From positions 1-38,346 of IMG/VR virus record IMGVR_UViG_3300043119_000192: 38,346 nucleotides of DNA; one strand, written 5' to 3'. This document shows, one piece after another, positions 9,810 to 36,090 of the stretch (position 1 is the first letter of the stretch; the number at the start of each line of letters is the position of its first letter). The stretch is from a virus. The notes below the pieces were generated by a model that saw nothing but the letters and a program-made list of their open reading frames with translations, did not search any database and was not told the DNA's origin. The position numbers were made by a program, and so were the translations under genes.

Positions 9810-10756
9810 TAGAACGTAACCTGCCTGCCGGAAGCGTCAAAAGTTCCACTGCCATAGCCGGTTATAAGACCGGGCATCGGAGGCAATTGAGCAATGGGAA
9901 TGCCGCTAAGGCTACCGAGCGCGCTATTGGAATTGATGCCAGAGCCGTTAAAGCTTGATTGGCCACCCAAAGCCCCGCCAAGGATGTTGCCAAGGCTCGC
10001 CACGCCCTGCCCAAGAGCCATGCCCGAACCTAGCGCGCCATAGCCCCTAGCCTGCCCGGTATCCCGCATCAGCGCGCCAATGGACTGCCCGGTCTGAATA
10101 TCTGCATTACCGACGCCTGCCGCTGCATTCTGCCCCAGCCCTGCGATGCCGCCAAGCGTGGAAAGCTGCTGCTGAATTTGCTGGTTAAGCAATGCGGGAC
10201 GGAACTGGCCTAGTGCCCCCTGCACGTTTCCGCCCCGCAGCCCCCCGGTTGCGCTCGCGTTTTGCAGGATACCCTCTTCACCCTGCCGTGCGAGAGCCTG
10301 AAACATCGGGCTTTGCTCAAGTTGGCTGATAGCCTGCTGCTGTGCATCCATGCCGCCGGTCTGGAACTGCGAGAGATCGGCGCGAGGATCGTTCCGCTGC
10401 TGCCACTGCTGCGCGAACGTCGCCAAGTCCTGCGCTGGCATCCCGAACATGCCCGGTCGGGACTGCTGCTGCTGAAACGCCTGCATCAATGCCGGGTTGG
10501 ATTGCGCGTAGGCCTGCCAGTTGGTCTGCTGCGGTGCCGCCCCTGCCAGCGTGAGAAGCTGCTGGAATGCCCCCGTACCGCCTTGTGCGTAAGGAGCGAG
10601 AAGCTGCTGCACCCGGTCAAACTGGCGGCGCTGTTCCGCAATGGCCTGCGCGTTAGCCTCTGCCTGCGCATTCGCTGCCGACTTCGCACCACCGGAAGCC
10701 AGAAGCCCCCCGCCGATTGAAGCCGCCGCGCCGATAAGGGCTGAAGCTACTGCCAT
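9809..10756 (-). CDS. Gly/Ala/Gln-rich internal virion / ejection protein (315 aa)
   Basis: Hydrophobic Gly-rich N-terminus with low-complexity Q/A/G composition. It sits in the ejection-protein position and its start overlaps the GNAT stop (TAATG). Confidence 0.55.
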   Translation of the reverse strand: MAVASALIGAAASIGGGLLASGGAKSAANAQAEANAQAIAEQRRQFDRVQQLLAPYAQGGTGAFQQLLTLAGAAPQQTNWQAYAQSNPALMQAFQQQQSRPGMFGMPAQDLATFAQQWQQRNDPRADLSQFQTGGMDAQQQAISQLEQSPMFQALARQGEEGILQNASATGGLRGGNVQGALGQFRPALLNQQIQQQLSTLGGIAGLGQNAAAGVGNADIQTGQSIGALMRDTGQARGYGALGSGMALGQGVASLGNILGGALGGQSSFNGSGINSNSALGSLSGIPIAQLPPMPGLITGYGSGTFDASGRQVTF

Positions 10757-11208
10757 TAGTTGAACCTCTTGATGAATGTATGCTCAAAGGGCCGATACCC
10801 GCGCCGCTCGTAAAGCTTCGCCATGCGCTGCCCTTCCAGCCGGTCGATGCACTTCATCTGCCATGTTGAGCAACCTTGCGCCTTGGCCGCGTCCTCGATA
10901 GCGTTAAGCAAGCGAATGCCCGTCATTGCAGGCGCGCCATCCGCAACCCACCAGAACAATTCCTCACCAGACTTGTGCGCGCGGTTGAAGTAGACCGGCG
11001 AAACCATGCCGCCCACCATGCCGACGATACCGTCAGCTTCCGCGACAAAGCACAGGAAAATGTCAAGCGACAGAAGCCACTCAAGCGAGGCGATGCAGTC
11101 CGCTTCCACGTACTCAAATAGATCATCCTGCCGCGCGCTAACGTCAAAGTCCCGACCCATGGCTGCCATGGCGGGAATGTCGTCAATCGTTGCGGGTCTA
11201 ATCTGCAT
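10756..11208 (-). CDS. GNAT-family N-acetyltransferase
   Basis: 150 aa with a typical GNAT layout (IRPATIDDIPAM..., a central beta-strand/helix core, and a C-terminal KLYERRGYRP acetyl-CoA-pocket-type motif). Confidence 0.75.
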   Translation of the reverse strand: MQIRPATIDDIPAMAAMGRDFDVSARQDDLFEYVEADCIASLEWLLSLDIFLCFVAEADGIVGMVGGMVSPVYFNRAHKSGEELFWWVADGAPAMTGIRLLNAIEDAAKAQGCSTWQMKCIDRLEGQRMAKLYERRGYRPFEHTFIKRFN

Positions 11209-11260
11209 CCGGCACCTTTATCAGGTGGCCTACTGGCTGGCCGGAACACTCAGTAACGGC

Positions 11261-11289
11261 ACCATACCACGCCACGCGGCCCTAGTCAA
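11261..11289 (-). promoter_or_regulatory. Sigma70-like promoter candidate directly upstream of the GNAT gene
   Basis: Minus strand: TTGACT (11289-11284), 17-nt spacer, TATGGT (11266-11261). Confidence 0.4.
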
Positions 11290-11295
11290 AAGCCT

Positions 11296-11631
11296 TTAGC
11301 TAATCGTCCGCCCCGACGCGCGGATGTTGATAGCCGTAGCCGTTCCCGCAATCGTGGAGATAAACCCGCCCGAAAGCAGCGTCTGCCCGACAATCTCGGG
11401 GAACGAATACGTCTCCGAAGGCTGCAAGGTTTTACCCTTGACAATCAGGTTCTGGTTGCCCGCCGTATCGCCAGACGTAACAAGGTTGACGCTAATCGTC
11501 GCATTCGATGCCGAGTAGTTGGTAGCGGTAATCTTGTCGATAATCGTGGTCACGCTGGTTGAAGTGTATTGCGTGGTTTGCGAGTTCTCCGCAATCTTGG
11601 CGGGGATAAGAACAGTGTTGATAGCTGCCAT
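11296..11631 (-). CDS. Hypothetical beta-rich virion protein (111 aa)
   Basis: Ser/Thr/Asn-rich sequence in the fibre-gene neighbourhood. ATG start at 11631. Confidence 0.5.
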   Translation of the reverse strand: MAAINTVLIPAKIAENSQTTQYTSTSVTTIIDKITATNYSASNATISVNLVTSGDTAGNQNLIVKGKTLQPSETYSFPEIVGQTLLSGGFISTIAGTATAINIRASGRTIS

Positions 11632-26421: not shown

Positions 26422-27074
26422 GCGTTCAACTCCGACCAGCGCTTAACGATCTCGCGCATCCATGGCGTTGCGTCCTTTTCAAACTTGCGTAAGCCATTGA
26501 TGACGGTGCTGTGATCCCTGCCACCGATCCACCGGCCCACTTGCGCAAGGCTGTTTGTTCCGCGCGAGGAAAGAACCTTGTAGGCCACGAGCCGCGCCTG
26601 CATGATAGGCTTCGACCGCTTGAGGCCGATCACATCCGCTAGCGATACGTCCATGTCGGCAGCAATGGCCGCGACAATCTCGCGATGGCCAGAGGGGATG
26701 TAATCAGGCGATGGCGGAACGTACTGACGAACGGGCTTCGGATCTTCCGGCACGGGCTTTGACACAATCCCCCGCGCCTCGTTCAGCTTTTCAAGCAGCT
26801 TTGCATCAGCCCTAACCGTAGCCTTGAACGTCTCAAAGTCGGTTTGCCGGATGTATTTGTCCGTCACATGCGCCGTCATCTTGGCTTCAAACGGTTCCGG
26901 CTTCGGCTTGCGCAGCTTGGCGATGTCGTCCCGCGTAAGCCCATGCTGGCCGTACTCGCGGTTAAGCTGAGCCATGATAAAGCCCAGATCGGAATGACGC
27001 TGCACCAGCTTTTCGGCATAGGTCTGCGGCATCCCAAGGGGATGGTTTTTAAAGTTCATCGCTGTTGCCCTCAT
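26418..27074 (-). CDS. DnaA domain IV-like HTH protein (putative replication initiation/regulation)
   Basis: The C-terminus SKPIMQARLVAYKVLSSRGTNSLAQVGRWIGGRDHSTVINGLRKFE parallels the DnaA C-terminal DNA-binding domain (…fGgRDHTTV…). Confidence 0.7.
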   Translation of the reverse strand: MRATAMNFKNHPLGMPQTYAEKLVQRHSDLGFIMAQLNREYGQHGLTRDDIAKLRKPKPEPFEAKMTAHVTDKYIRQTDFETFKATVRADAKLLEKLNEARGIVSKPVPEDPKPVRQYVPPSPDYIPSGHREIVAAIAADMDVSLADVIGLKRSKPIMQARLVAYKVLSSRGTNSLAQVGRWIGGRDHSTVINGLRKFEKDATPWMREIVKRWSELNA

Positions 27075-28294
27075 GCTGCCAAATCCTTTCCAAGTTCGGC
27101 TTTTTTGGCTTTCTTGATGTCAAGCCAGCGTCCATAAGCTTCGGACTTTGGCTGCGTTAAACCAAGCCCCTTGCACCACCAGTCATTGCGCAAAAGAACC
27201 TTGCACAAGCGGCGATATGACGGTGCCCAATGCTGATCTTCCAGAAGCTTAGGGGCTTCATCGGGAATGACGGTATAACCCCTTCCGTACCAGCCTTTAA
27301 GCCAGCTACGGAAACGAGCTATGTAATGATCGCGCGTCGGCTTTGGCAGCGACATAAGCAAGAGGTTGCAAAATGATTTCCATGTATGCCCATCAGGCCG
27401 GGCAATTTTGTTATACCCCATGATGTTGCCCATTTCCTGCACATAAATAGCACCGGAGTTTGCGCCGTTGACGCGGGCAATCAGCTTAAACCACGTTTCA
27501 GGCTCAAGCACATGGTAAAGCCAAAGCCCCTTGCGCTGATCGTCACCATAAGGCTGGCAAAGGCGCTGCTGACTAAGCGGCACACCGGCTTGCTGCATTA
27601 GGTCATAAACGTGATTGTGCGGCTTATCAGGAAACTTGGCATGGTAGCGCCAAATGTCCTGCGTCCGCCAATCGTATATTGGGTAGACGTTGTACGTCTC
27701 GCCGATCACGTAAGTTGTGTACCGCTTGCCGCCGTGTATCCGCTTGTCAAAGACGGCGATAGTGCGGAAGCGGTTTAGGCTTTCATCGGCGCGGATGCCG
27801 ACAAAGCCTGCGCACGGCTTACCTTCGCCGTACCATTCGCCAAACAACACGACAAATTCTTCAAATTCCATGCCAGGCTGAAAGAAGGGGTAAAACAGCG
27901 GCGACGTGATGGCCTCTTTGGCAGGCTGGCGCACCCAAATGTCTTGTTTGTCCGGGTCCCAGCATAACCAGCGCGGCTCGTAGTTTGTGACGGCATTGCG
28001 CAGCGACATAGGCAGGCAAACCCAATGCAGGTCTATGTGCGGACGATATAAATCGACCATTTCCTGCAAGTGGGCTTCGGTAGCCTTGTATTGAGCCTCA
28101 AGGTCGATAATCAGCACGCCAACCTTGCGCCCGCGCTTTATGGCTTCATCCATGACAAGGTGAAGCATAACGCTACTGTCCTTGCCGCCTGAGAAGCTGA
28201 CGTAGAGCTTTTCGAAATTGTCAAAGCTGTAGGAAATGCGCTCGCGCGCGGCGTCTAGGACATTCTGGTCCCGATAATGCTTTCTGTCGGTCAT
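27071..28294 (-). CDS. PAPS-reductase-family (PP-loop ATPase) protein, IbrA-like
   Basis: The PP-loop SFSGGKDSSV lies near the N-terminus, with a long C-terminal extension as in IbrA/DUF3440-type proteins. ATG at 28294 overlaps the upstream TAA. Confidence 0.8.
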   Translation of the reverse strand: MTDRKHYRDQNVLDAARERISYSFDNFEKLYVSFSGGKDSSVMLHLVMDEAIKRGRKVGVLIIDLEAQYKATEAHLQEMVDLYRPHIDLHWVCLPMSLRNAVTNYEPRWLCWDPDKQDIWVRQPAKEAITSPLFYPFFQPGMEFEEFVVLFGEWYGEGKPCAGFVGIRADESLNRFRTIAVFDKRIHGGKRYTTYVIGETYNVYPIYDWRTQDIWRYHAKFPDKPHNHVYDLMQQAGVPLSQQRLCQPYGDDQRKGLWLYHVLEPETWFKLIARVNGANSGAIYVQEMGNIMGYNKIARPDGHTWKSFCNLLLMSLPKPTRDHYIARFRSWLKGWYGRGYTVIPDEAPKLLEDQHWAPSYRRLCKVLLRNDWWCKGLGLTQPKSEAYGRWLDIKKAKKAELGKDLAA

Positions 28295-28719
28295 TAGTAA
28301 AGGTCCGCCTGCGTACGGCCTAAGGCATCTTCCATAGAGATAGCTTCGTGGCCTTTGTTTCCCATCCACGCATTAATTGCATCGAGCGCAATCCAATCAG
28401 CGCGCTTTTGCTCAAGTTCTGTCAGCAAGAAGGATCCTCCGCAGAAAAACTTGGATACGCCAGTTTCAATGCACATTGAAGCTTGCCCCATCCATGCGAT
28501 GCGGTTCATTCGCTCGTTGGTTAGGTAGTGCTCCGAACTCATGCGCCATTCGGTAATGACGCGTTCGGCTGCACTTCTAAAACGTATATCATTGCGCAAA
28601 AAATCGGCATACATGCGCTTGCAGTCCTCAATAGACCAATCCTTGCGCGGCGGTTTGGGGTTGTAGAACCCGGCTGGGTAGCATTCCCACTTTTCCCATG
28701 TGTAATAAACGCGCTGCAT
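28294..28719 (-). CDS. Hypothetical protein (141 aa) inserted between the ParB-like and PAPS-reductase-like genes
   Basis: I recognised no motif. It is translationally coupled on both sides (TGATG and TAATG). Confidence 0.55.
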   Translation of the reverse strand: MQRVYYTWEKWECYPAGFYNPKPPRKDWSIEDCKRMYADFLRNDIRFRSAAERVITEWRMSSEHYLTNERMNRIAWMGQASMCIETGVSKFFCGGSFLLTELEQKRADWIALDAINAWMGNKGHEAISMEDALGRTQADLY

Positions 28720-29378
28720 CACACTTCCTCAACCACAAGATCAAAGTCGTCTACATCCCATGATTGGGAAAAATCGTCGTCTGCAAAAAGTTCTGCAAGC
28801 CCGCTAATCTGGCAAAGGCGCAGCACCTCATCCGGCTCCATGCCAAGATTGGTGGCAATCTTTTCGTCTGACCAATTCCGCTTCTTAAGCTCAATTACAA
28901 TGTCAGACATTGCCTCAACCTTGTGCTTGCCACGTGCGCGGTTGTGCCGGATCGTGGAAGCCATACGGTCTGTCTTATCCGATTGGCTTTCGCGGATTTG
29001 AACAAGCGGAAGGTAGCCGTGCACCCGGCTTTGAATGTCTGCGCATTCCTTGCCGACGCGATGCCGGTGAAAGCCGTCGATAACCTCAAAGGTATCATCA
29101 GGATCGGCCATCGAAACGATAGGCTGCGTGTAGCCATCGGCGTCAATAGACAAGCGCAGCAATTCCATTTCTGGCGGCGCAACGCTGTTAGGGTTATAGT
29201 CGTTTGAGTGAACAAGCGTGTTTGGAACCCAACGCACAAAATCGACCGGCTCACTGCGGAATGGGCTAACTTCGTGGATAGCCTCTCGCAACTGATTGAT
29301 GGCTTCAACGCGAGCCGCTAGTGGCATATCCGCAAGCGCAGCGATATATGCCCAAACATCGTTTGGTGTTTCGTTCAT
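28719..29378 (-). CDS. ParB-like nuclease domain protein, IbrB-like
   Basis: The EVIDGFHRH motif (ParB N-terminal DGxHR box) is followed by RHNRARG. AGGAGAA SD. Confidence 0.8.
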   Translation of the reverse strand: MNETPNDVWAYIAALADMPLAARVEAINQLREAIHEVSPFRSEPVDFVRWVPNTLVHSNDYNPNSVAPPEMELLRLSIDADGYTQPIVSMADPDDTFEVIDGFHRHRVGKECADIQSRVHGYLPLVQIRESQSDKTDRMASTIRHNRARGKHKVEAMSDIVIELKKRNWSDEKIATNLGMEPDEVLRLCQISGLAELFADDDFSQSWDVDDFDLVVEEV

Positions 29379-29404
29379 TCCAATTCTCCTATTGGAAGCT
29401 AGAG

Positions 29405-29563
29405 TTATTCCGAAAAATCCGGAGCGACCATATCAGCCGCCCCGGCAGGTTCCGCGCGAAGGGGAGTGGGTGTAGGCGCGCGGGTATCTTCTAGAACACG
29501 GATGGAGTGCGGGAAGCGGAGAGCTTCCAGCCACGCGCCGGGTTCTGATTGGTCGTCAATCAT
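29405..29563 (-). CDS. Small acidic hypothetical protein (52 aa, below the ORF-track cutoff)
   Basis: The ATG immediately follows the MTase TAG stop. MIDDQSEPGAWLEALRFPHSIRVLEDTRAP... Confidence 0.3.
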   Translation of the reverse strand: MIDDQSEPGAWLEALRFPHSIRVLEDTRAPTPTPLRAEPAGAADMVAPDFSE

Positions 29564-30319
29564 CTAAGCCGTCCCTTGTTCGTGGAATGCGGACAAGATG
29601 GCATTGCCGATCAGTTCAGGGATGGCAGGGTCTACCGTGTTTCCGCACAATCCAACTCTGTCCATCCTGTTGGGAACCCTGCAAGCCATTCCGCGAAGCA
29701 AGGGTTTAGGGTGACAATCTCCGTCATTGAACGGGTCTGCGGCGATGTCGAGCAAATGCGCCTGGCCACTCTCCCGCCTTTGTCGAGCCTCGCCAATATC
29801 TTTGCTTGTGAGCAATCGCGCGGCTCGCTTTTCGGAAGGGTTAGCAACAATCCAGATGCGGTCTCGTTCTTGGCTGGCACCAACGCTTGACGCCGGAATG
29901 CAATGCCACTGCGTGTCATACCCGAGCGAGGAAAGCGCCCCGAGAACCGCGCCCATCCCTCGATTAAGCAACTCTGCCACGTTCTCCAGCACAATGTATG
30001 GGCGTCCCACCATGCAAACGGTTCGTAAAATATGCCAGAACAATCCGCTTCGCTCCCCGGCAAGTCCGGCGGCGTTTTGATTTGCGATGGAAATGTCTTG
30101 GCATGGGAAACCTGCCGTAACCACTTCCACGGGTCCGATAAGTTTAAGCGTGGTAACGTCGTCATAACACGGCACTCCCGGCCAATGCTTGGCCAAAACC
30201 TTTTGAGCGTATGGCTCTATTTCACAAAAGGCGCTTGTCTCAAAACCACCTGTGCGCTCAAGGCCAAGGCTAAAACCACCTTGCCCGCTAAACAGATCAA
30301 GGACGCGCAGCTTGCTCAC
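29564..30319 (-). CDS. DNA (cytosine-5)-methyltransferase, compact (251 aa)
   Basis: Motif I DLFSGQGG, IV GFPCQDIS, VI ENV, VIII QERDR and X GNTV. The GTG start overlaps the upstream TGA. Confidence 0.9.
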   Translation of the reverse strand: MSKLRVLDLFSGQGGFSLGLERTGGFETSAFCEIEPYAQKVLAKHWPGVPCYDDVTTLKLIGPVEVVTAGFPCQDISIANQNAAGLAGERSGLFWHILRTVCMVGRPYIVLENVAELLNRGMGAVLGALSSLGYDTQWHCIPASSVGASQERDRIWIVANPSEKRAARLLTSKDIGEARQRRESGQAHLLDIAADPFNDGDCHPKPLLRGMACRVPNRMDRVGLCGNTVDPAIPELIGNAILSAFHEQGTA

Positions 30320-30417
30320 TTGCCAGCCCGATTAATGCAGCGCCCGATCCACATTGCCAGCGGGATCGTAACGGCGAAGTAAGCGAGCGTTGCGCCGATC
30401 ATGATAAGGGCGGTCAT
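30316..30417 (-). CDS. Small hydrophobic peptide (33 aa, below the ORF-track cutoff)
   Basis: MTALIMIGATLAYFAVTIPLAMWIGRCINRAGK is a single TM-like helix. ATGA overlap upstream and GTGA overlap downstream. Confidence 0.35.
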   Translation of the reverse strand: MTALIMIGATLAYFAVTIPLAMWIGRCINRAGK

Positions 30418-30596
30418 ACAGCCTCCACTGCATCAGCGAGCTTGGCCAGCGTTAGCGGGCGCAGCGCGTGTTCTTCATTGCGCCAGCGGTAGAACGCCGA
30501 TGGCGAGACGCCAGCGTTGCGAATGAATGTGGAAAGAGGCAACCGCGCTTTAACCGCCGCCGCCTCTACCTGCTGTGGTGTGAGTGTGTTTTCCAT
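30414..30596 (-). CDS. Small HTH regulator (60 aa), first gene of the leftward early operon
   Basis: LPLSTFIRNAGVSPSAFYRWRN is an HTH. The predicted -10 ends 7 nt before this ATG, so the mRNA may be leaderless. The rest of the 252-aa track ORF is rejected. Confidence 0.6.
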   Translation of the reverse strand: MENTLTPQQVEAAAVKARLPLSTFIRNAGVSPSAFYRWRNEEHALRPLTLAKLADAVEAV

Positions 30597-30603
30597 GCCC
30601 CAT

Positions 30604-30674
30604 TGCATACCGTCGCAGTTTTTTTGCGTCAATGCATTTTTTCGCTTGGCATTGCACATTGTCGCGCTTAGAAG
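30604..30674. promoter_or_regulatory. Back-to-back divergent early promoters with CA(A/T)TGCA operator-like motifs
   Basis: Leftward: TTGACG (30632-30627), N17, TATGCA (30609-30604). Rightward: TTGGCA (30646-30651), N17, TAGAAG (30669-30674). CATTGCA/CAATGCA occurs at 30601, 30630 and 30650. Confidence 0.45.
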
Positions 30675-31892: not shown

Positions 31893-31996
31893 TGCCCCGC
31901 ACCACCCTCCGCGACCTTGCAGCCGATTGGCGCACTGGCCTCGTGATCTTCGCAGCCGCCGCGCTCCTGCCCTTCCTTGCCTGTCTGGGAGACTGA
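31892..31996 (+). CDS. Small TM peptide (34 aa, below the ORF-track cutoff)
   Basis: MPRTTLRDLAADWRTGLVIFAAAALLPFLACLGD. It is coupled at both ends. Confidence 0.35.
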   Translation: MPRTTLRDLAADWRTGLVIFAAAALLPFLACLGD

Positions 31997-31997
31997 C

Positions 31998-32882
31998 ATG
32001 AACGATATTCCTTACATCCGTAACGCCAAGTACGAAACAACCGGCGAAACTAAAGACTGGCTTGGCATCACACTATACCGCATCCGCGCCGTAGCTGACA
32101 TCGCCGCGATGGGGATCGTTGCCGGAACGATTGGTGGCTGGATCAGCAGCGAAAAGAATTTGCAGGTCTCCGGCAATGCGTGGGTCTACGGCAATGCGTT
32201 GGTCTACGGCAATGCGAGGGTCTCCGGCAATGCGAGGGTCTCCGGCAATGCGTGGGTCTACGGCAATGCGTTGGTCTACGGCAATGCGAGGGTCTCCGGC
32301 AATGCGAGGGTCTACGGCAATGCGTGGGTCTACGGCAATGCGTTGGTCTACGGCGATGCGAGGGTCTACGGCAATGCGTTGGTCTACGGCGATGCGAGGG
32401 TCTACGGCAATGCGTTGGTCTACGGCAATGCGAGGGTCTACGGCAATGCGTGGGTCTACGGCGATGCGAGGGTCTCCGGCAATGCGAGGGTCTACGGCAA
32501 TGCGTTGGTCTCCGGCAATGCGTTGGTCTACGGCAATGCGTTGGTCTACGGCAATGCGTTGGTCTACGGCAATGCGAGGGTCTACGGCAATGCGTGGGTC
32601 TACGGCGATGCGAGGGTCTCCGGCAATGCGAGGGTCTACGGCGTAAACATCACTGCTACCCGTAGTGATAGCTACACGTTTCTTGTAGCACCCACACCCG
32701 CAGGCCCGCGCATTATTGCCGGTTGCCGATACTTCACTTTTGATGAGGCTCGTGCCCATTGGGCTAGAACTCGCGGTGGTACGCAGCTTGGCGATGAAAG
32801 CCTTGCTTTGGTTGACCACCTTGAACGCATGGCAAAGCTTAACGGGTTTATCGAGCCTGTCGCCGTGAATGTGGAGGCTTGA
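31998..32882 (+). CDS. Hexapeptide-repeat protein (predicted left-handed beta-helix type) with unique N- and C-terminal domains
   Basis: 26 consecutive V-[YS]-G-[ND]-A-[WLR] units. ATG at 31998 (MNDIPY). The C-terminal RSDSYTFLV...IIAGCRYFTFDEARAHW block looks like a conserved phage domain. Confidence 0.8.
   Translation: MNDIPYIRNAKYETTGETKDWLGITLYRIRAVADIAAMGIVAGTIGGWISSEKNLQVSGNAWVYGNALVYGNARVSGNARVSGNAWVYGNALVYGNARVSGNARVYGNAWVYGNALVYGDARVYGNALVYGDARVYGNALVYGNARVYGNAWVYGDARVSGNARVYGNALVSGNALVYGNALVYGNALVYGNARVYGNAWVYGDARVSGNARVYGVNITATRSDSYTFLVAPTPAGPRIIAGCRYFTFDEARAHWARTRGGTQLGDESLALVDHLERMAKLNGFIEPVAVNVEA
32166..32642 (+). repeat. 26.5 tandem copies of an 18-bp unit GTCTMCGGCRATGCGNNG
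   Basis: Read unit by unit. Only 4 nucleotide positions per unit ever vary. All six reading frames are open across it. Confidence 0.95.
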
Positions 32883-33735: not shown

Positions 33736-34002
33736 ATGGCAAGCCGCCGCGATATTTGCACACCACGCAAGAAGTCCGATGGGGGAACCTACTGGGTCAA
33801 GATCGGCACCGCATGGGATAGCGACAAGGGAACGCAGCTTGTGTTTGATGCGCTCCCGATACCTGATGCCGAAGGGCGCTGCGTGGCCAATCTGTTCGAG
33901 CCGCGCGAGAATGACAATCCGCGTGGCAAGTCCGCAGCGGGCGACCGCCAGCAGGCACGGCAGCGGGCGCAGGATGATGACGGGGACTCGATCCCATTCT
34001 AG
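33736..34002 (+). CDS. Small protein (88 aa) with an SSB-type acidic C-terminal tip
   Basis: It ends in DDDGDSIPF (compare the bacterial SSB tip DDDIPF), preceded by a Gln/Arg-rich linker and a short N-terminal beta-type segment. AAGGAAAG SD. Confidence 0.6.
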   Translation: MASRRDICTPRKKSDGGTYWVKIGTAWDSDKGTQLVFDALPIPDAEGRCVANLFEPRENDNPRGKSAAGDRQQARQRAQDDDGDSIPF

Positions 34003-34052
34003 GCCCAACACCGCTGGCAGGCCGGTTGTCTGCCAAACCATAGGAGAATGAT

Positions 34053-34382
34053 ATGTCTACCCCAAGCATTACCCCCGTCACTGTTGTCGCCATGCGCAAA
34101 GTCTTTGCGCTGCTTGAGGACCATTTTGATCCGGTTGAAGGGATGTACAAAAACGCATATTCTGACAAGAAAGTTGCCGCTGAAACTGGCATTTCAGTTG
34201 ATGCAGTCAAAAAGTATCGCGTCGATGGCTTTGGCAAGCTTAAGGCACCCAGCGAACTTGTGACGCTTCGCCAACAGATTGATGAACTTGAAACACTTTT
34301 TCTCAAAACCGAAGCCGAAATGAAGGCTCAAATCAAGGATACCCGCGCGCGCATTCTTCAGCTTCAGAGGGGGTTTGACTAA
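34053..34382 (+). CDS. Hypothetical protein (109 aa)
   Basis: AGGAGA SD, with a C-terminal coiled-coil-like segment. Confidence 0.5.
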   Translation: MSTPSITPVTVVAMRKVFALLEDHFDPVEGMYKNAYSDKKVAAETGISVDAVKKYRVDGFGKLKAPSELVTLRQQIDELETLFLKTEAEMKAQIKDTRARILQLQRGFD

Positions 34383-34684
34383 TGACACCTGTAAAGCAAG
34401 CCCGCGTAATTCGCGATTGGTTCGCCCGTGAAAAGGTCCATGAAAGCGCAGAATATATTATTGCCACGGACGCATCTGTGTTTGTGCAAACAGAATACAT
34501 TCAAAACAAAAAGCGGCCTGAAATGTTCTTACTTTTGATCGAGCATGAAGGCGGAAAAATTTCCATTCCGTTTAACTCTGAAATAATGGGTAAATGGAAA
34601 AAGGAAATTGCTGAATTTAGCCATGCCTTTTGGCTGCAAGGCCAACATTTGCCTTACGCGCAATATGGAAAGCGGAAAGGTTAA
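34382..34684 (+). CDS. Hypothetical protein (100 aa), low-GC island
   Basis: TAATG coupling and AT-rich codon usage unlike the rest of the genome. Confidence 0.5.
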   Translation: MTPVKQARVIRDWFAREKVHESAEYIIATDASVFVQTEYIQNKKRPEMFLLLIEHEGGKISIPFNSEIMGKWKKEIAEFSHAFWLQGQHLPYAQYGKRKG

Positions 34685-34687
34685 GAA

Positions 34688-35020
34688 ATGCTTCCCCCTC
34701 GCAAAGCCAAAAAGCCCAAGGCAGAAACCCGCTGGCGTTCCCAAGCTCACCTTGGGTTCGTCCGCAGCCATTGCTGTTCAGTATGCCATAGCGATGCAGG
34801 GATTGAGGCGGCGCATGTTCGCCTCGGTTCCGGCGCTGGCATGGGGCAGCGTCCTCATGATTTTCTTGCAGTCAGCCTTTGCCGAGATTGTCATCAAAAA
34901 CAGCATACCATAGGCGAAAGAACGTTTTGGGATGGCGTAAATTTGCAAGAATTGATAGAAGCGTTTTGCAAAGCCAGCCCAAAAGCGCGCGAAATAAAGG
35001 ACTTTCGCAATGCAAAATGA
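34688..35020 (+). CDS. Cys/His-rich HNH-like protein (DUF968-like)
   Basis: WRSQAHLGFVRSHCCSVCH...IEAAHVR...LCRDCHQKQH resembles the DUF968/HNH-type pattern of lambdoid prophage proteins. Confidence 0.55.
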   Translation: MLPPRKAKKPKAETRWRSQAHLGFVRSHCCSVCHSDAGIEAAHVRLGSGAGMGQRPHDFLAVSLCRDCHQKQHTIGERTFWDGVNLQELIEAFCKASPKAREIKDFRNAK

Positions 35021-35480
35021 TCGTCGATGCGTAAAGTGCGGAGAACCTCTTTTGCGAAAAGAGGGGGAAAGCCATAGATACTTTGCTGATCGTAAATTTT
35101 GTTCTCGTGCGTGTTATCTTGGCAATAGATCCACAAAGCCCATTTGGATGACTTTTCAAGAAAATACTATCAAGCGAGAAAACGGATGTATTGAATGGCA
35201 GGGGTATGCCGACCGCAAGGGATACGGACGTTTTTCAACACACGGAGGCGAAGTGTTGTGCCATCGCATAGCTTATGCCATTCATTTTGGCATTAGCGTA
35301 GCCGGAAAACAGGTTTTGCATCGTTGCGACAACAGATTGTGCTGCAATCCGCAGCATTTGTTTCTGGGAACGCACAAAGATAATATGGCAGATATGGCGC
35401 GAAAGGGGAGGTCTCCTAAGCGGTTTGGCCAACAAAACCCGAATTATCGTCATGGCAAGAATTGTGTTGTTAATGGCTAA
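35010..35480 (+). CDS. HNH homing-type endonuclease (HNH_3-like)
   Basis: NGCIEWQGYADRKGYGRF...CHRIAY...VLHRCDNRLCCNPQHLFLGTHKDNMAD is the classic HNH_3 pattern. Confidence 0.85.
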   Translation: MQNDRRCVKCGEPLLRKEGESHRYFADRKFCSRACYLGNRSTKPIWMTFQENTIKRENGCIEWQGYADRKGYGRFSTHGGEVLCHRIAYAIHFGISVAGKQVLHRCDNRLCCNPQHLFLGTHKDNMADMARKGRSPKRFGQQNPNYRHGKNCVVNG

Positions 35481-35483
35481 CAA

Positions 35484-35903
35484 ATGACTGATCGCCGCAC
35501 TATCGTCTTGACAAGCCAAACAGCCAAGGACCGGGCCAAGCGTCTCATCGATCTGGCACCCTATGGCTATGTCATGGCGATAGGCGAGGAAACGCGCTCG
35601 CAGTCCCAGAACAAACTGATGTGGCCGCTAATCTCGGACATACAGGCGCAAGTGCCGGGTATGGAGACATTCTCGCCCGATGACATAAAGCTGCGGTTCC
35701 TTCACGCGCTAGGGCAGGAACTGCGCTTTCTGCCGGAGCTTGAAGGGGCAGGCGTTTTTCCCGTAGGGCAACGTTCCTCTACGTTGTCGAAGTCGCAATT
35801 CACGGCGATGATTGAACTGATGTTTGAATACGGCGTTAGGCATGGTGTGCGATGGTCCGCTAAGTCGGAATCAACGCGCGCGGATCAAAACCTAGTCAAA
35901 TAA
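35484..35903 (+). CDS. ninB: NinB/Orf-family recombination mediator
   Basis: The blocks RSQSQNKLMWPLISDI and GQRSSTLSKSQFTAMIELMFEYGVRHGVRWS parallel lambda NinB (RSLDQNRKLWACLGDV, GQSTSRMRVGEFAELLELIQAFGTERGVKWS). Confidence 0.8.
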   Translation: MTDRRTIVLTSQTAKDRAKRLIDLAPYGYVMAIGEETRSQSQNKLMWPLISDIQAQVPGMETFSPDDIKLRFLHALGQELRFLPELEGAGVFPVGQRSSTLSKSQFTAMIELMFEYGVRHGVRWSAKSESTRADQNLVK

Positions 35904-35946
35904 ATAATCCGCTTGCAATGCGCGGAATGCCGCTTATGATGGCGGA

Positions 35947-36090
35947 ATGAACTGGAAAACATACCTTAAGGATCAAGAACGCGACCGGCTTGCAGAGCTT
36001 GCAGCCGATCGCACCACTAACCGCGCTGAATACCGCCGCATCTATGATCGGTGCCGCAAGCGCGCTGCCAAGCTGGAGCAACAACCATGA
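35947..36090 (+). CDS. Small basic protein (47 aa, below the ORF-track cutoff)
   Basis: MNWKTYLKDQERDRLAELAADRTTNRAEYRRIYDRCRKRAAKLEQQP. Its stop overlaps the next ATG (ATGA). Confidence 0.4.
   Translation: MNWKTYLKDQERDRLAELAADRTTNRAEYRRIYDRCRKRAAKLEQQP

Follow-up and report, generated by a model that had tools for sequence, protein, structure and literature searches.

A three-gene IbrAB-type cassette and a separately inserted C5 methyltransferase in the early operon of an IMG/VR virus

We analyzed positions 1 to 38,346 of IMG/VR virus record IMGVR_UViG_3300043119_000192, a stretch of 38,346 nt that we call the window and whose positions serve as coordinates throughout. Its early operon encodes a C5 cytosine DNA methyltransferase (MTase), a ParB-like protein of the IbrB type, a 141-aa protein that we label X and a PAPS-reductase-family enzyme of the IbrA type, all on the minus strand (Table 1). 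An earlier note, made from the sequence alone, had read the four genes as one translationally coupled, putative DNA-modification island. We find instead that the ParB, X and IbrA genes are a coupled, horizontally mobile three-gene unit of the IbrAB type, to which the MTase does not belong. X and the three-component form of IbrAB are new, whereas the IbrA and IbrB families were already known and the MTase is ordinary. In the literature that we searched, neither X nor an IbrAB system with three components is described. As to function, our best explanation, which we put forward tentatively, is a separate orphan-MTase cassette beside a self-contained IbrAB-type trio that would modify or shield the phage DNA.

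A coupled and mobile three-gene unit

The coordinates, family matches and motifs given earlier for the four open reading frames (ORFs) all hold up. Within the trio the genes are chained by 1-nt overlaps that can be read from the sequence as the earlier note described them, TGATG between the ParB stop and the X start and TAATG between the X stop and the IbrA start. The chain continues past IbrA, through an ATGA overlap, into a gene for a DnaA_C-like protein. Among 80 related loci, this gene follows IbrA in the same manner only in L010 (IMGVR_UViG_3300017778_001501), the closest relative found, whose X is 93% identical to that of the window; it is a neighbor and not a conserved member of the module. 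The MTase gene lies 185 bp from the ParB gene and is uncoupled from it, contrary to the idea that all four genes are translationally coupled.

The surroundings of X were surveyed in IMG/VR with two profiles. A close-family profile gave 80 loci, all of which were examined, and a second profile, built from distant members, hit at least 588 stretches, from which 80 loci were kept; the two sets share five loci and comprise about 155 distinct loci in total. In the close set, the ParB gene lies directly upstream and the IbrA gene directly downstream of X in 79 of the 80 loci, and the exception is truncated by the end of its contig. Both partners accompany X in 78 of the 80 distant loci, the other two being cut. 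Gene order varies in this second set (X-IbrA-ParB in 66 loci, ParB-X-IbrA in nine, IbrA-ParB-X in three and truncated in two), and the three orders are cyclic rotations of a single one. X has both partners in all of the roughly 155 untruncated viral loci sampled, and likewise in seven out of seven Pfam-annotated metagenome contigs, which we used for gene context. The survey had been proposed along with the suggestion that the middle gene is a system-specific component, and it bears that suggestion out: in untruncated loci, X occurs only beside such pairs. The arrangement is confirmed to go beyond chance, since all three genes have hundreds to thousands of homologues likewise arranged elsewhere.

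Gene fusions connect X with both of its partners. ParB and X form a single reading frame in 15 of the 80 close loci, and also in P0245 and P0250. P0254, P0256 and P0268 join X to a copy of the C-terminal part (a sub-domain) of DUF3440, a domain of IbrA, and in P0251 it is fused to a Terminase_2-like helix-turn-helix (HTH) that retains the last ParB segment. In 12 loci, X is separated from a full-length IbrA by a small ORF of the DUF3440-C type, and in four further loci such an ORF comes just after X, behind IbrA and ParB. Because these fusions link X to ParB and to an IbrA-type sub-domain, we propose that X may be the bridge of a ternary complex, and its obligatory presence in the module points the same way.

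Two loci show insertions of another kind. P0250 (637 aa, a metagenomic ParB-X fusion) has an intein-like insert (C...HN, about 260 aa) that splits its ParB domain within the conserved DGYTQPIV motif. In Mycobacterium phage Nebkiss, the X homologue is gp106 (E 3e-32), which comes after IbrA (gp103), ParB (gp104) and a GIY-YIG-like endonuclease gene (gp105, positions 5706-6080 of L009). The last of these lies between ParB and X and is probably a homing endonuclease gene that split the module.

The trio moves between backbones as a cassette. Besides Nebkiss, its cultured carriers are Mycobacterium phage Gaia, Pseudoalteromonas phage XCL1123, Pseudomonas phage Amjad_SA and 'Microcystis' phage Mwe-JY13, and these five make its function directly testable. 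A scan of 185,579 representative bacterial genomes yielded the close form of X on just two small contigs of metagenome-assembled genomes (MAGs). The window resembles Mwe-JY13 in its DNA (74.6%) over positions 27109-29276, that is, over the trio only, and the flanks differ. The G+C content is 0.51-0.53 over the trio (27001-29000), compared with about 0.57-0.60 around it. A second dip, to 0.48-0.50, lies at about 34-36 kb (34001-36000) in a segment with an HNH endonuclease gene and a NinB-like gene. The two dips suggest separately acquired segments.

X itself belongs to no family: neither the window protein nor 75 diverse members matched any model in the libraries that we scanned, namely Pfam (2025 copy), PHROGs v4, NCBIfam 20 and PADLOC 2. 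A word-indexed search returned 443 homologues, none of them named or carrying a Pfam domain. A profile search against 1.84 billion representatives placed the family at no fewer than 749 clusters at 50% identity, again without a named member or a Pfam domain. Two motifs stand out, an N-terminal WxxWE[CD]YxxGFY in an ordered segment and SCEHxLTNxxxNRIAWLGQA. Across the 75 members W11, E12, G17, W58, L66, N72, A75, G78, Q79 and A111 are invariant or nearly so. Structure prediction, another check suggested earlier, gave a confident AlphaFold2 (AF2) model (predicted local distance difference test score, pLDDT, 92; predicted template modeling score, pTM, 0.87) of an all-alpha, seven-helix domain. 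Neither a sequence profile nor Foldseek (best E 1.4) matched X to an entry of the PDB, and in BFVD Foldseek found a single unnamed 116-aa phage protein (template modeling scores 0.65/0.79). Alignment of X with IbrA by hhalign revealed no relation between the two.

We rejected X as a cysteine-based sulfur carrier. Its C13 and C83 are invariant among close relatives only and are replaced in distant members, which show WED variants. GenBank labels the X of Mwe-JY13 (PP438406.1, L001) 'ParB/sulfiredoxin'. No search supports that name, and it therefore looks like annotation spill-over from the neighboring gene.

The methyltransferase as a separate insertion

The MTase matches PF00145 (E 9.5e-35, 121 bits), TIGR00675 (110.2 bits against a cut-off of 100.65) and phrog_363 (E 3e-63), and its translation contains FSGQGG, PCQ, ENV, QERDR and GNTV (motifs I, IV, VI, VIII and X). 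Judged by these matches, it is a C5 cytosine DNA methyltransferase, complete though compact, and an ordinary one. It shares its core motifs and its early-operon position with the orphan phage enzymes of this class (phrog_363, Dcm-type), from which it differs in its compactness (251 aa) and short target-recognition region. It has no linkage to the IbrAB-type module.

The comparison with L010 delimits the insertion. In blastn, window positions 30710-30328 correspond to L010 3840-4220 and positions 29485-26430 to L010 4239-7290. Because L010 aligns on both flanks of the MTase, window positions 29486-30327 replace 18 bp of L010, and these 842 bp hold the entire MTase gene. The insertion starts exactly at the 3' end of a 33-aa hydrophobic ORF. 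Among about 170 X-bearing loci, three (L086, L162 and L176) have a C5-MTase homologue in their 5-7 kb flanks, at a different position each time. Of the seven Pfam-annotated contexts, one includes a C5-MTase and another a Mom homologue, neither of which adjoins the trio. Given the insertion and the rarity of a nearby C5-MTase, the four-gene island proposed earlier is no unit, and the insertion boundary together with the three co-occurrences rules out the MTase as a member of the module. In L176, a close homologue of the window MTase (10469-11305, E 1.5e-70) is encoded downstream of IbrA at a distance of two genes, after a helicase gene; MTases of this one family thus change position within early regions of this kind.

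Table 1. Features of the early operon around the trio
Feature	Position	Strand	Basis
DnaA_C-like DNA-binding protein, 218 aa	26418-27074	-	PF08299, E 7.6e-13
IbrA-like PP-loop ATP pyrophosphatase, 407 aa	27071-28294	-	PAPS_reduct at residues 30-219, DUF3440 at 237-350 onward
Protein X, 141 aa, third module component	28294-28719	-	No family; start overlaps the ParB stop
IbrB-like ParB/Srx protein, 219 aa	28719-29378	-	phrog_2159, E 8e-67; DGFHRH at residues 101-106
52-aa ORF (doubtful)	29405-29563	-	Begins directly after the MTase stop (TAGATG)
Terminator-like hairpin, G+C-rich stem of 11-12 bp, then a T run	29419-29445	-	Consensus scan
842-bp insertion relative to L010, holding the entire MTase gene	29486-30327		blastn; 18 bp in L010
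Compact orphan C5 cytosine DNA methyltransferase, 251 aa	29564-30319	-	PF00145, TIGR00675, phrog_363
33-aa strongly hydrophobic ORF (MTALIMIGATLAYFAVTIPLAMWIGRCINRAGK)	30316-30417	-	Translation; largely conserved in L010
Small HTH-like putative early regulator, operon head	30414-30608	-	Translation; conserved in L010

Family relationships and possible function of the trio

IbrA/IbrB-type pairs are very common. The window IbrA has at least 8000 homologues, 221 cultured-phage records carry such pairs, and E. coli K-12 has one as ybdNM. They have been labeled variously as 'co-activators', 'cysH AMGs' (auxiliary metabolic genes) and 'partition proteins'. The earlier note held that their biochemistry was not established, and in the literature that we searched we likewise found no biochemical function for them, and no paper or solved structure establishing one.

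The window IbrA scores well above the cut-offs of PF01507 PAPS_reduct (49.3 bits against 22.5, E 7e-13) and PF11922 DUF3440 (119 bits against 25, E 2e-34) and matches phrog_2302 over residues 1-387 (E 6e-86), which by sequence places it in the IbrA family. Its long C-terminal extension had been noticed earlier and is indeed present; it proves to be a known Pfam domain, DUF3440. We favor the ATG at 28294 as its start over a GTG at 28369 because the homologues are 398-407 aa long. The best 120 homologues are at least 74% identical to it, and the nearest named one comes from a Rhodocyclaceae MAG. Across 147 homologues of 33-97% identity, the PP-loop SFSGGKDS (residues 33-40), D64/E66, R168/E171/S172/R175, NxYPxYDW and a set of DUF3440 residues are invariant.

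The ParB protein consists of an N-terminal ParB/Srx domain, a conserved RHNRARGKH motif and a C-terminal HTH-like segment (LGMxxDEVLRLCQISGL), and an AGGAG lies 9 nt ahead of its ATG. It scores below the cut-off of Pfam ParB_N (20.8 bits against 26.3). DGFHR is kept in at least 95% of 78 homologues. The ParB/Srx domain, the DGxHR motif and the gene adjoining IbrA identify it, at the level of sequence, as a member of the IbrB family. No PADLOC model matches ParB or X.

The earlier identification of an IbrB/IbrA-type pair is supported by the DUF3440 domain and by a homologue in E. coli phage PhiR5_2 that is annotated IbrA/IbrB; the window IbrA is 43% identical to the PhiR5_2 IbrA over 97% of its length. 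Adjacent, co-oriented genes of the same two protein families occur in the E. coli ECOR-9 island and PhiR5_2 (IbrA/IbrB), as the paralogous pair YbdN/YbdM, and, in many phages, as PHROG 2302/2159. Chromosomal examples outside phages are the E. coli ybdNM pair and a pair in Listeria. The classical arrangement has two genes, ibrA followed by ibrB, an order shown by PhiR5_2, CHPC1230 and Nebkiss, whereas the window has three, running from ParB through X to IbrA. No X was found within the retrieved stretches of the E. coli PhiR5_2 and S. thermophilus CHPC1230 loci. The window locus is thus not a classical two-gene ibrA-ibrB operon.

Under our preferred reading, the MTase cassette, inserted between the early regulator and the terminator-like hairpin, would give ordinary 5-methylcytosine protection against restriction, and the trio would be translated as one coupled unit inside the replication/recombination part of the early operon. 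The ParB/HTH protein would bind DNA, possibly gated by a nucleotide like other ParB/Srx proteins. X would be attached to the C-terminal end of ParB and bridge it to IbrA, which would spend ATP to adenylate a nucleic-acid group. Replicating phage DNA would thereby be covalently modified or otherwise shielded from host defense, through an adenylyl-transfer or amidation-type reaction as well as through sulfur insertion, all of these being equally possible. Complex formation, DNA as the substrate and a protective role are what we infer from the gene-level evidence.

Precedents exist for such a pairing. ParB-superfamily proteins partner DNA-modification enzymes in Dnd, where the partner is DndB (PMC10853773), and in Dpd, where it is DpdB (PMC12839542). 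The Dnd, Ssp and BREX type 4 systems (DndB and DndC; SspD; BrxP) resemble the module in combining a PAPS-reductase-fold PP-loop enzyme with a ParB-superfamily DGxHR protein, a pair that in Dnd acts on DNA. Unlike these systems, the window IbrA has no conserved cysteine dyad or Cys-rich region and the module has no DndA/D/E, SspA/B/C or PglZ partners nearby; none of the literature searched describes DUF3440 or X as a part of Dnd, Ssp or BREX. In the Dpd 7-deazaguanine modification, the ParB-like NTPase DpdB assists the modifying enzyme, and a PP-loop enzyme, QueC, belongs to the pathway (PMC12839542). The window differs in lacking a TGT/DpdA homologue, in an IbrA of the PAPS-reductase branch and not the QueC branch, and in an all-alpha X with no known fold. 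Piel et al. 2022 is cited for a phage PAPS reductase that enables escape from host Dnd (PMC13551039, PMC10945359). Taken together, the synteny of the trio, its fusions, its mobility, its early replication context, the conserved active site and the Dnd and Dpd precedents make modification or shielding of the DNA plausible, if still short of probable.

Several observations weigh against this reading. No cysteine is invariant among the 147 IbrA homologues or the 75 X members. In IbrA, the DndC model TIGR03183 reaches 22.7 bits against a cut-off of 290.4, the PADLOC BrxP model covers 25 residues of the PP-loop only, and the CysH models TIGR02057 (28 bits against 254) and TIGR00434 (21 against 165) also fall far short. 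Cysteine desulfurase, DndD/E and SspB/C genes are missing among the neighbors of the module, both in the window and in the seven Pfam-annotated relatives. The AF2 model of IbrA is poor (pLDDT 67), worst in the most conserved loops, and a search of the PDB by sequence gave no relative of ParB or IbrA. The bridging role proposed for X follows from fusions and synteny, and the protein offers no recognizable fold from which it might be read. The enzyme that Piel et al. reported from a Vibrio phage may be of another type than DUF3440 and may lack a ParB partner. Finally, the only genetic phenotype that goes with the name IbrAB is the switching-on of prophage eib genes, described for E. coli ECOR-9 (Sandt et al. 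2002, cited in PMC7649339).

The analogy with DNA thiolation and BREX type 4 drawn earlier is correspondingly weak. Further scans agree with the scores above: the PADLOC DndC model covers residues 165-234 of IbrA only, a CysD model stays far under its cut-off, and no BREX genes (PglZ, BrxC or BrxL) lie near the module. By its sequence, IbrA fails to qualify as DndC/SspD, BrxP or CysH. An Fe-S cluster held by C93, C246 and C374 was considered and rejected, these residues being conserved in close homologues and each replaced in some wider lineages. The absence of an invariant IbrA cysteine weakens the thiolation analogy, and the chemistry therefore need not be sulfur insertion. In Foldseek, the N-terminal domain of IbrA matches the PAPS domain of FAD synthase, TtuA, PAPS reductase and CysD (E about 3e-4), that is, PP-loop enzymes of both adenylyl transfer and thiolation; because the AF2 model is poor, this search indicates a generic PP-loop fold only.

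A more specific form of the proposal is rather unlikely. In it, ParB, X and IbrA would be a non-sulfur nucleic-acid modification machine, in which a non-sulfur group would be transferred after an ATP-dependent adenylation, or in which adenylylation would itself be the modification, with X selecting or presenting the target. If true, it would provide a function for the entire IbrAB/YbdNM superfamily, including the two-gene forms such as that of E. coli K-12. More generally, should the module turn out to modify DNA or to overcome a defense such as Dnd, it would represent a widespread and so far unrecognized counter-defense.

Three rival explanations strike us as unlikely. In the first, the trio is a transcriptional co-activator: ParB/HTH and IbrA (and X) would switch on phage or host genes and leave no lasting modification on the DNA. 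The family takes its name from eib activation, databases label it 'co-activator of prophage gene expression', the C-terminal segment of ParB is HTH-like and the module comes directly after a terminator-like hairpin in the early operon. However, the ATP-pyrophosphatase active site is strictly kept over the 33-97% identity range, which points to catalysis over plain DNA binding. The module is also found in phages annotated without lysogeny functions, always in replication modules, and the eib effect could stem indirectly from a change in the DNA or nucleoid.

It is no less doubtful that the module attacks or marks the DNA of the host or of rival phages, as an offensive or competitive system for superinfection exclusion or host takeover. 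An improbable variant of this idea makes ParB an NTP-regulated nickase and IbrA and X its regulators or co-effectors. ParB/Srx domains of conflict systems have been reported as nicking DNases/NTPases (PMC5512222), and a 2026 preprint counts PAPS reductase, alone or with additional Arc- and ParBc-domain proteins, among candidate defense operons; the E. coli and Listeria pairs, moreover, exist outside phages. Against these points stand the lack of PADLOC matches to ParB and X, the near absence of this X form from the bacterial genomes (two small MAG contigs, compared with at least 588 viral contigs) and the lack of a predicted promoter of the module's own for expression in a lysogen.

We also think it improbable that the trio is a replication or recombination accessory that processes DNA ends or origins, through ParB binding or nicking plus adenylation, with no protective modification. 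Most related phages with the same types of replication module lack the trio, and it is exchanged as a cassette among backbones that are unrelated; its mobility and patchy presence fit an accessory role and not one in core replication. To our knowledge, no replication pathway uses a PAPS-reductase-fold enzyme, which also counts against this explanation. It would nevertheless account for the constant position of the trio between recombination genes and the replicative helicase/primase, for its translational coupling to the DnaA_C-like protein in the window and in L010, and for its invasion by inteins and homing endonucleases (P0250; Nebkiss gp105), which typically target replication genes.

An auxiliary metabolic role, in which IbrA would enhance assimilatory sulfate reduction as a viral CysH, is very improbable indeed: PHROG labels phrog_2302 'moron, auxiliary metabolic gene' and a virome study included a clade with DUF3440 in its count of viral cysH genes (bioRxiv 10.1101/2021.01.05.425418), but besides the low CysH scores and the want of an invariant cysteine, the CC...CxxC and ECGLH motifs are missing from the IbrA translation, and the obligatory linkage of IbrA to a ParB-like DNA-binding protein and to X argues against annotation as sulfur metabolism.

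The surrounding operon

The earlier note had placed the module in an early operon, and it does lie within the early/replication operon. Its neighbors in the window are replication and recombination genes (RusA, a replication protein, Erf and NinB), and in all annotated relatives the trio stands beside such genes (SSB, RecT, YqaJ, ERF, DnaB, helicase). No sigma-70-like promoter was predicted within 26-30.4 kb.

The head of the operon is formed by a small HTH-like ORF, which probably starts at the ATG at 30596. Because it has no Pfam match, its role as a regulator is only inferred. The 33-aa hydrophobic ORF that follows overlaps both the stop of this putative regulator (ATGA) and the start of the MTase gene (GTGA). 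The 185-bp spacer between MTase and ParB contains the terminator-like hairpin and the 52-aa ORF. We rejected the latter as a genuine gene: only its 3' third is kept in L010, and it is therefore probably a chimeric by-product of the insertion.

The hairpin sits 40 nt upstream of the ParB start. Its RNA fold is predicted at -24 kcal/mol with an unremarkable z of only -0.57, and it is kept in L010 with a G-U pair changed to G-C. By analogy with lambda tR1, it may divide an immediate-early segment (regulator, small peptide and MTase) from the ParB-X-IbrA and replication genes.

Outside the operon, a plus-strand gene at 31977-32882 encodes a 301-aa protein made up mostly of tandem hexapeptide-like GNA(R/L/W)V(Y/S) repeats (phrog_7964, function unassigned). 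In L176, a beta-solenoid/bactofilin-like protein is encoded upstream of YqaJ, at a position comparable to that of the repeat protein in the window.

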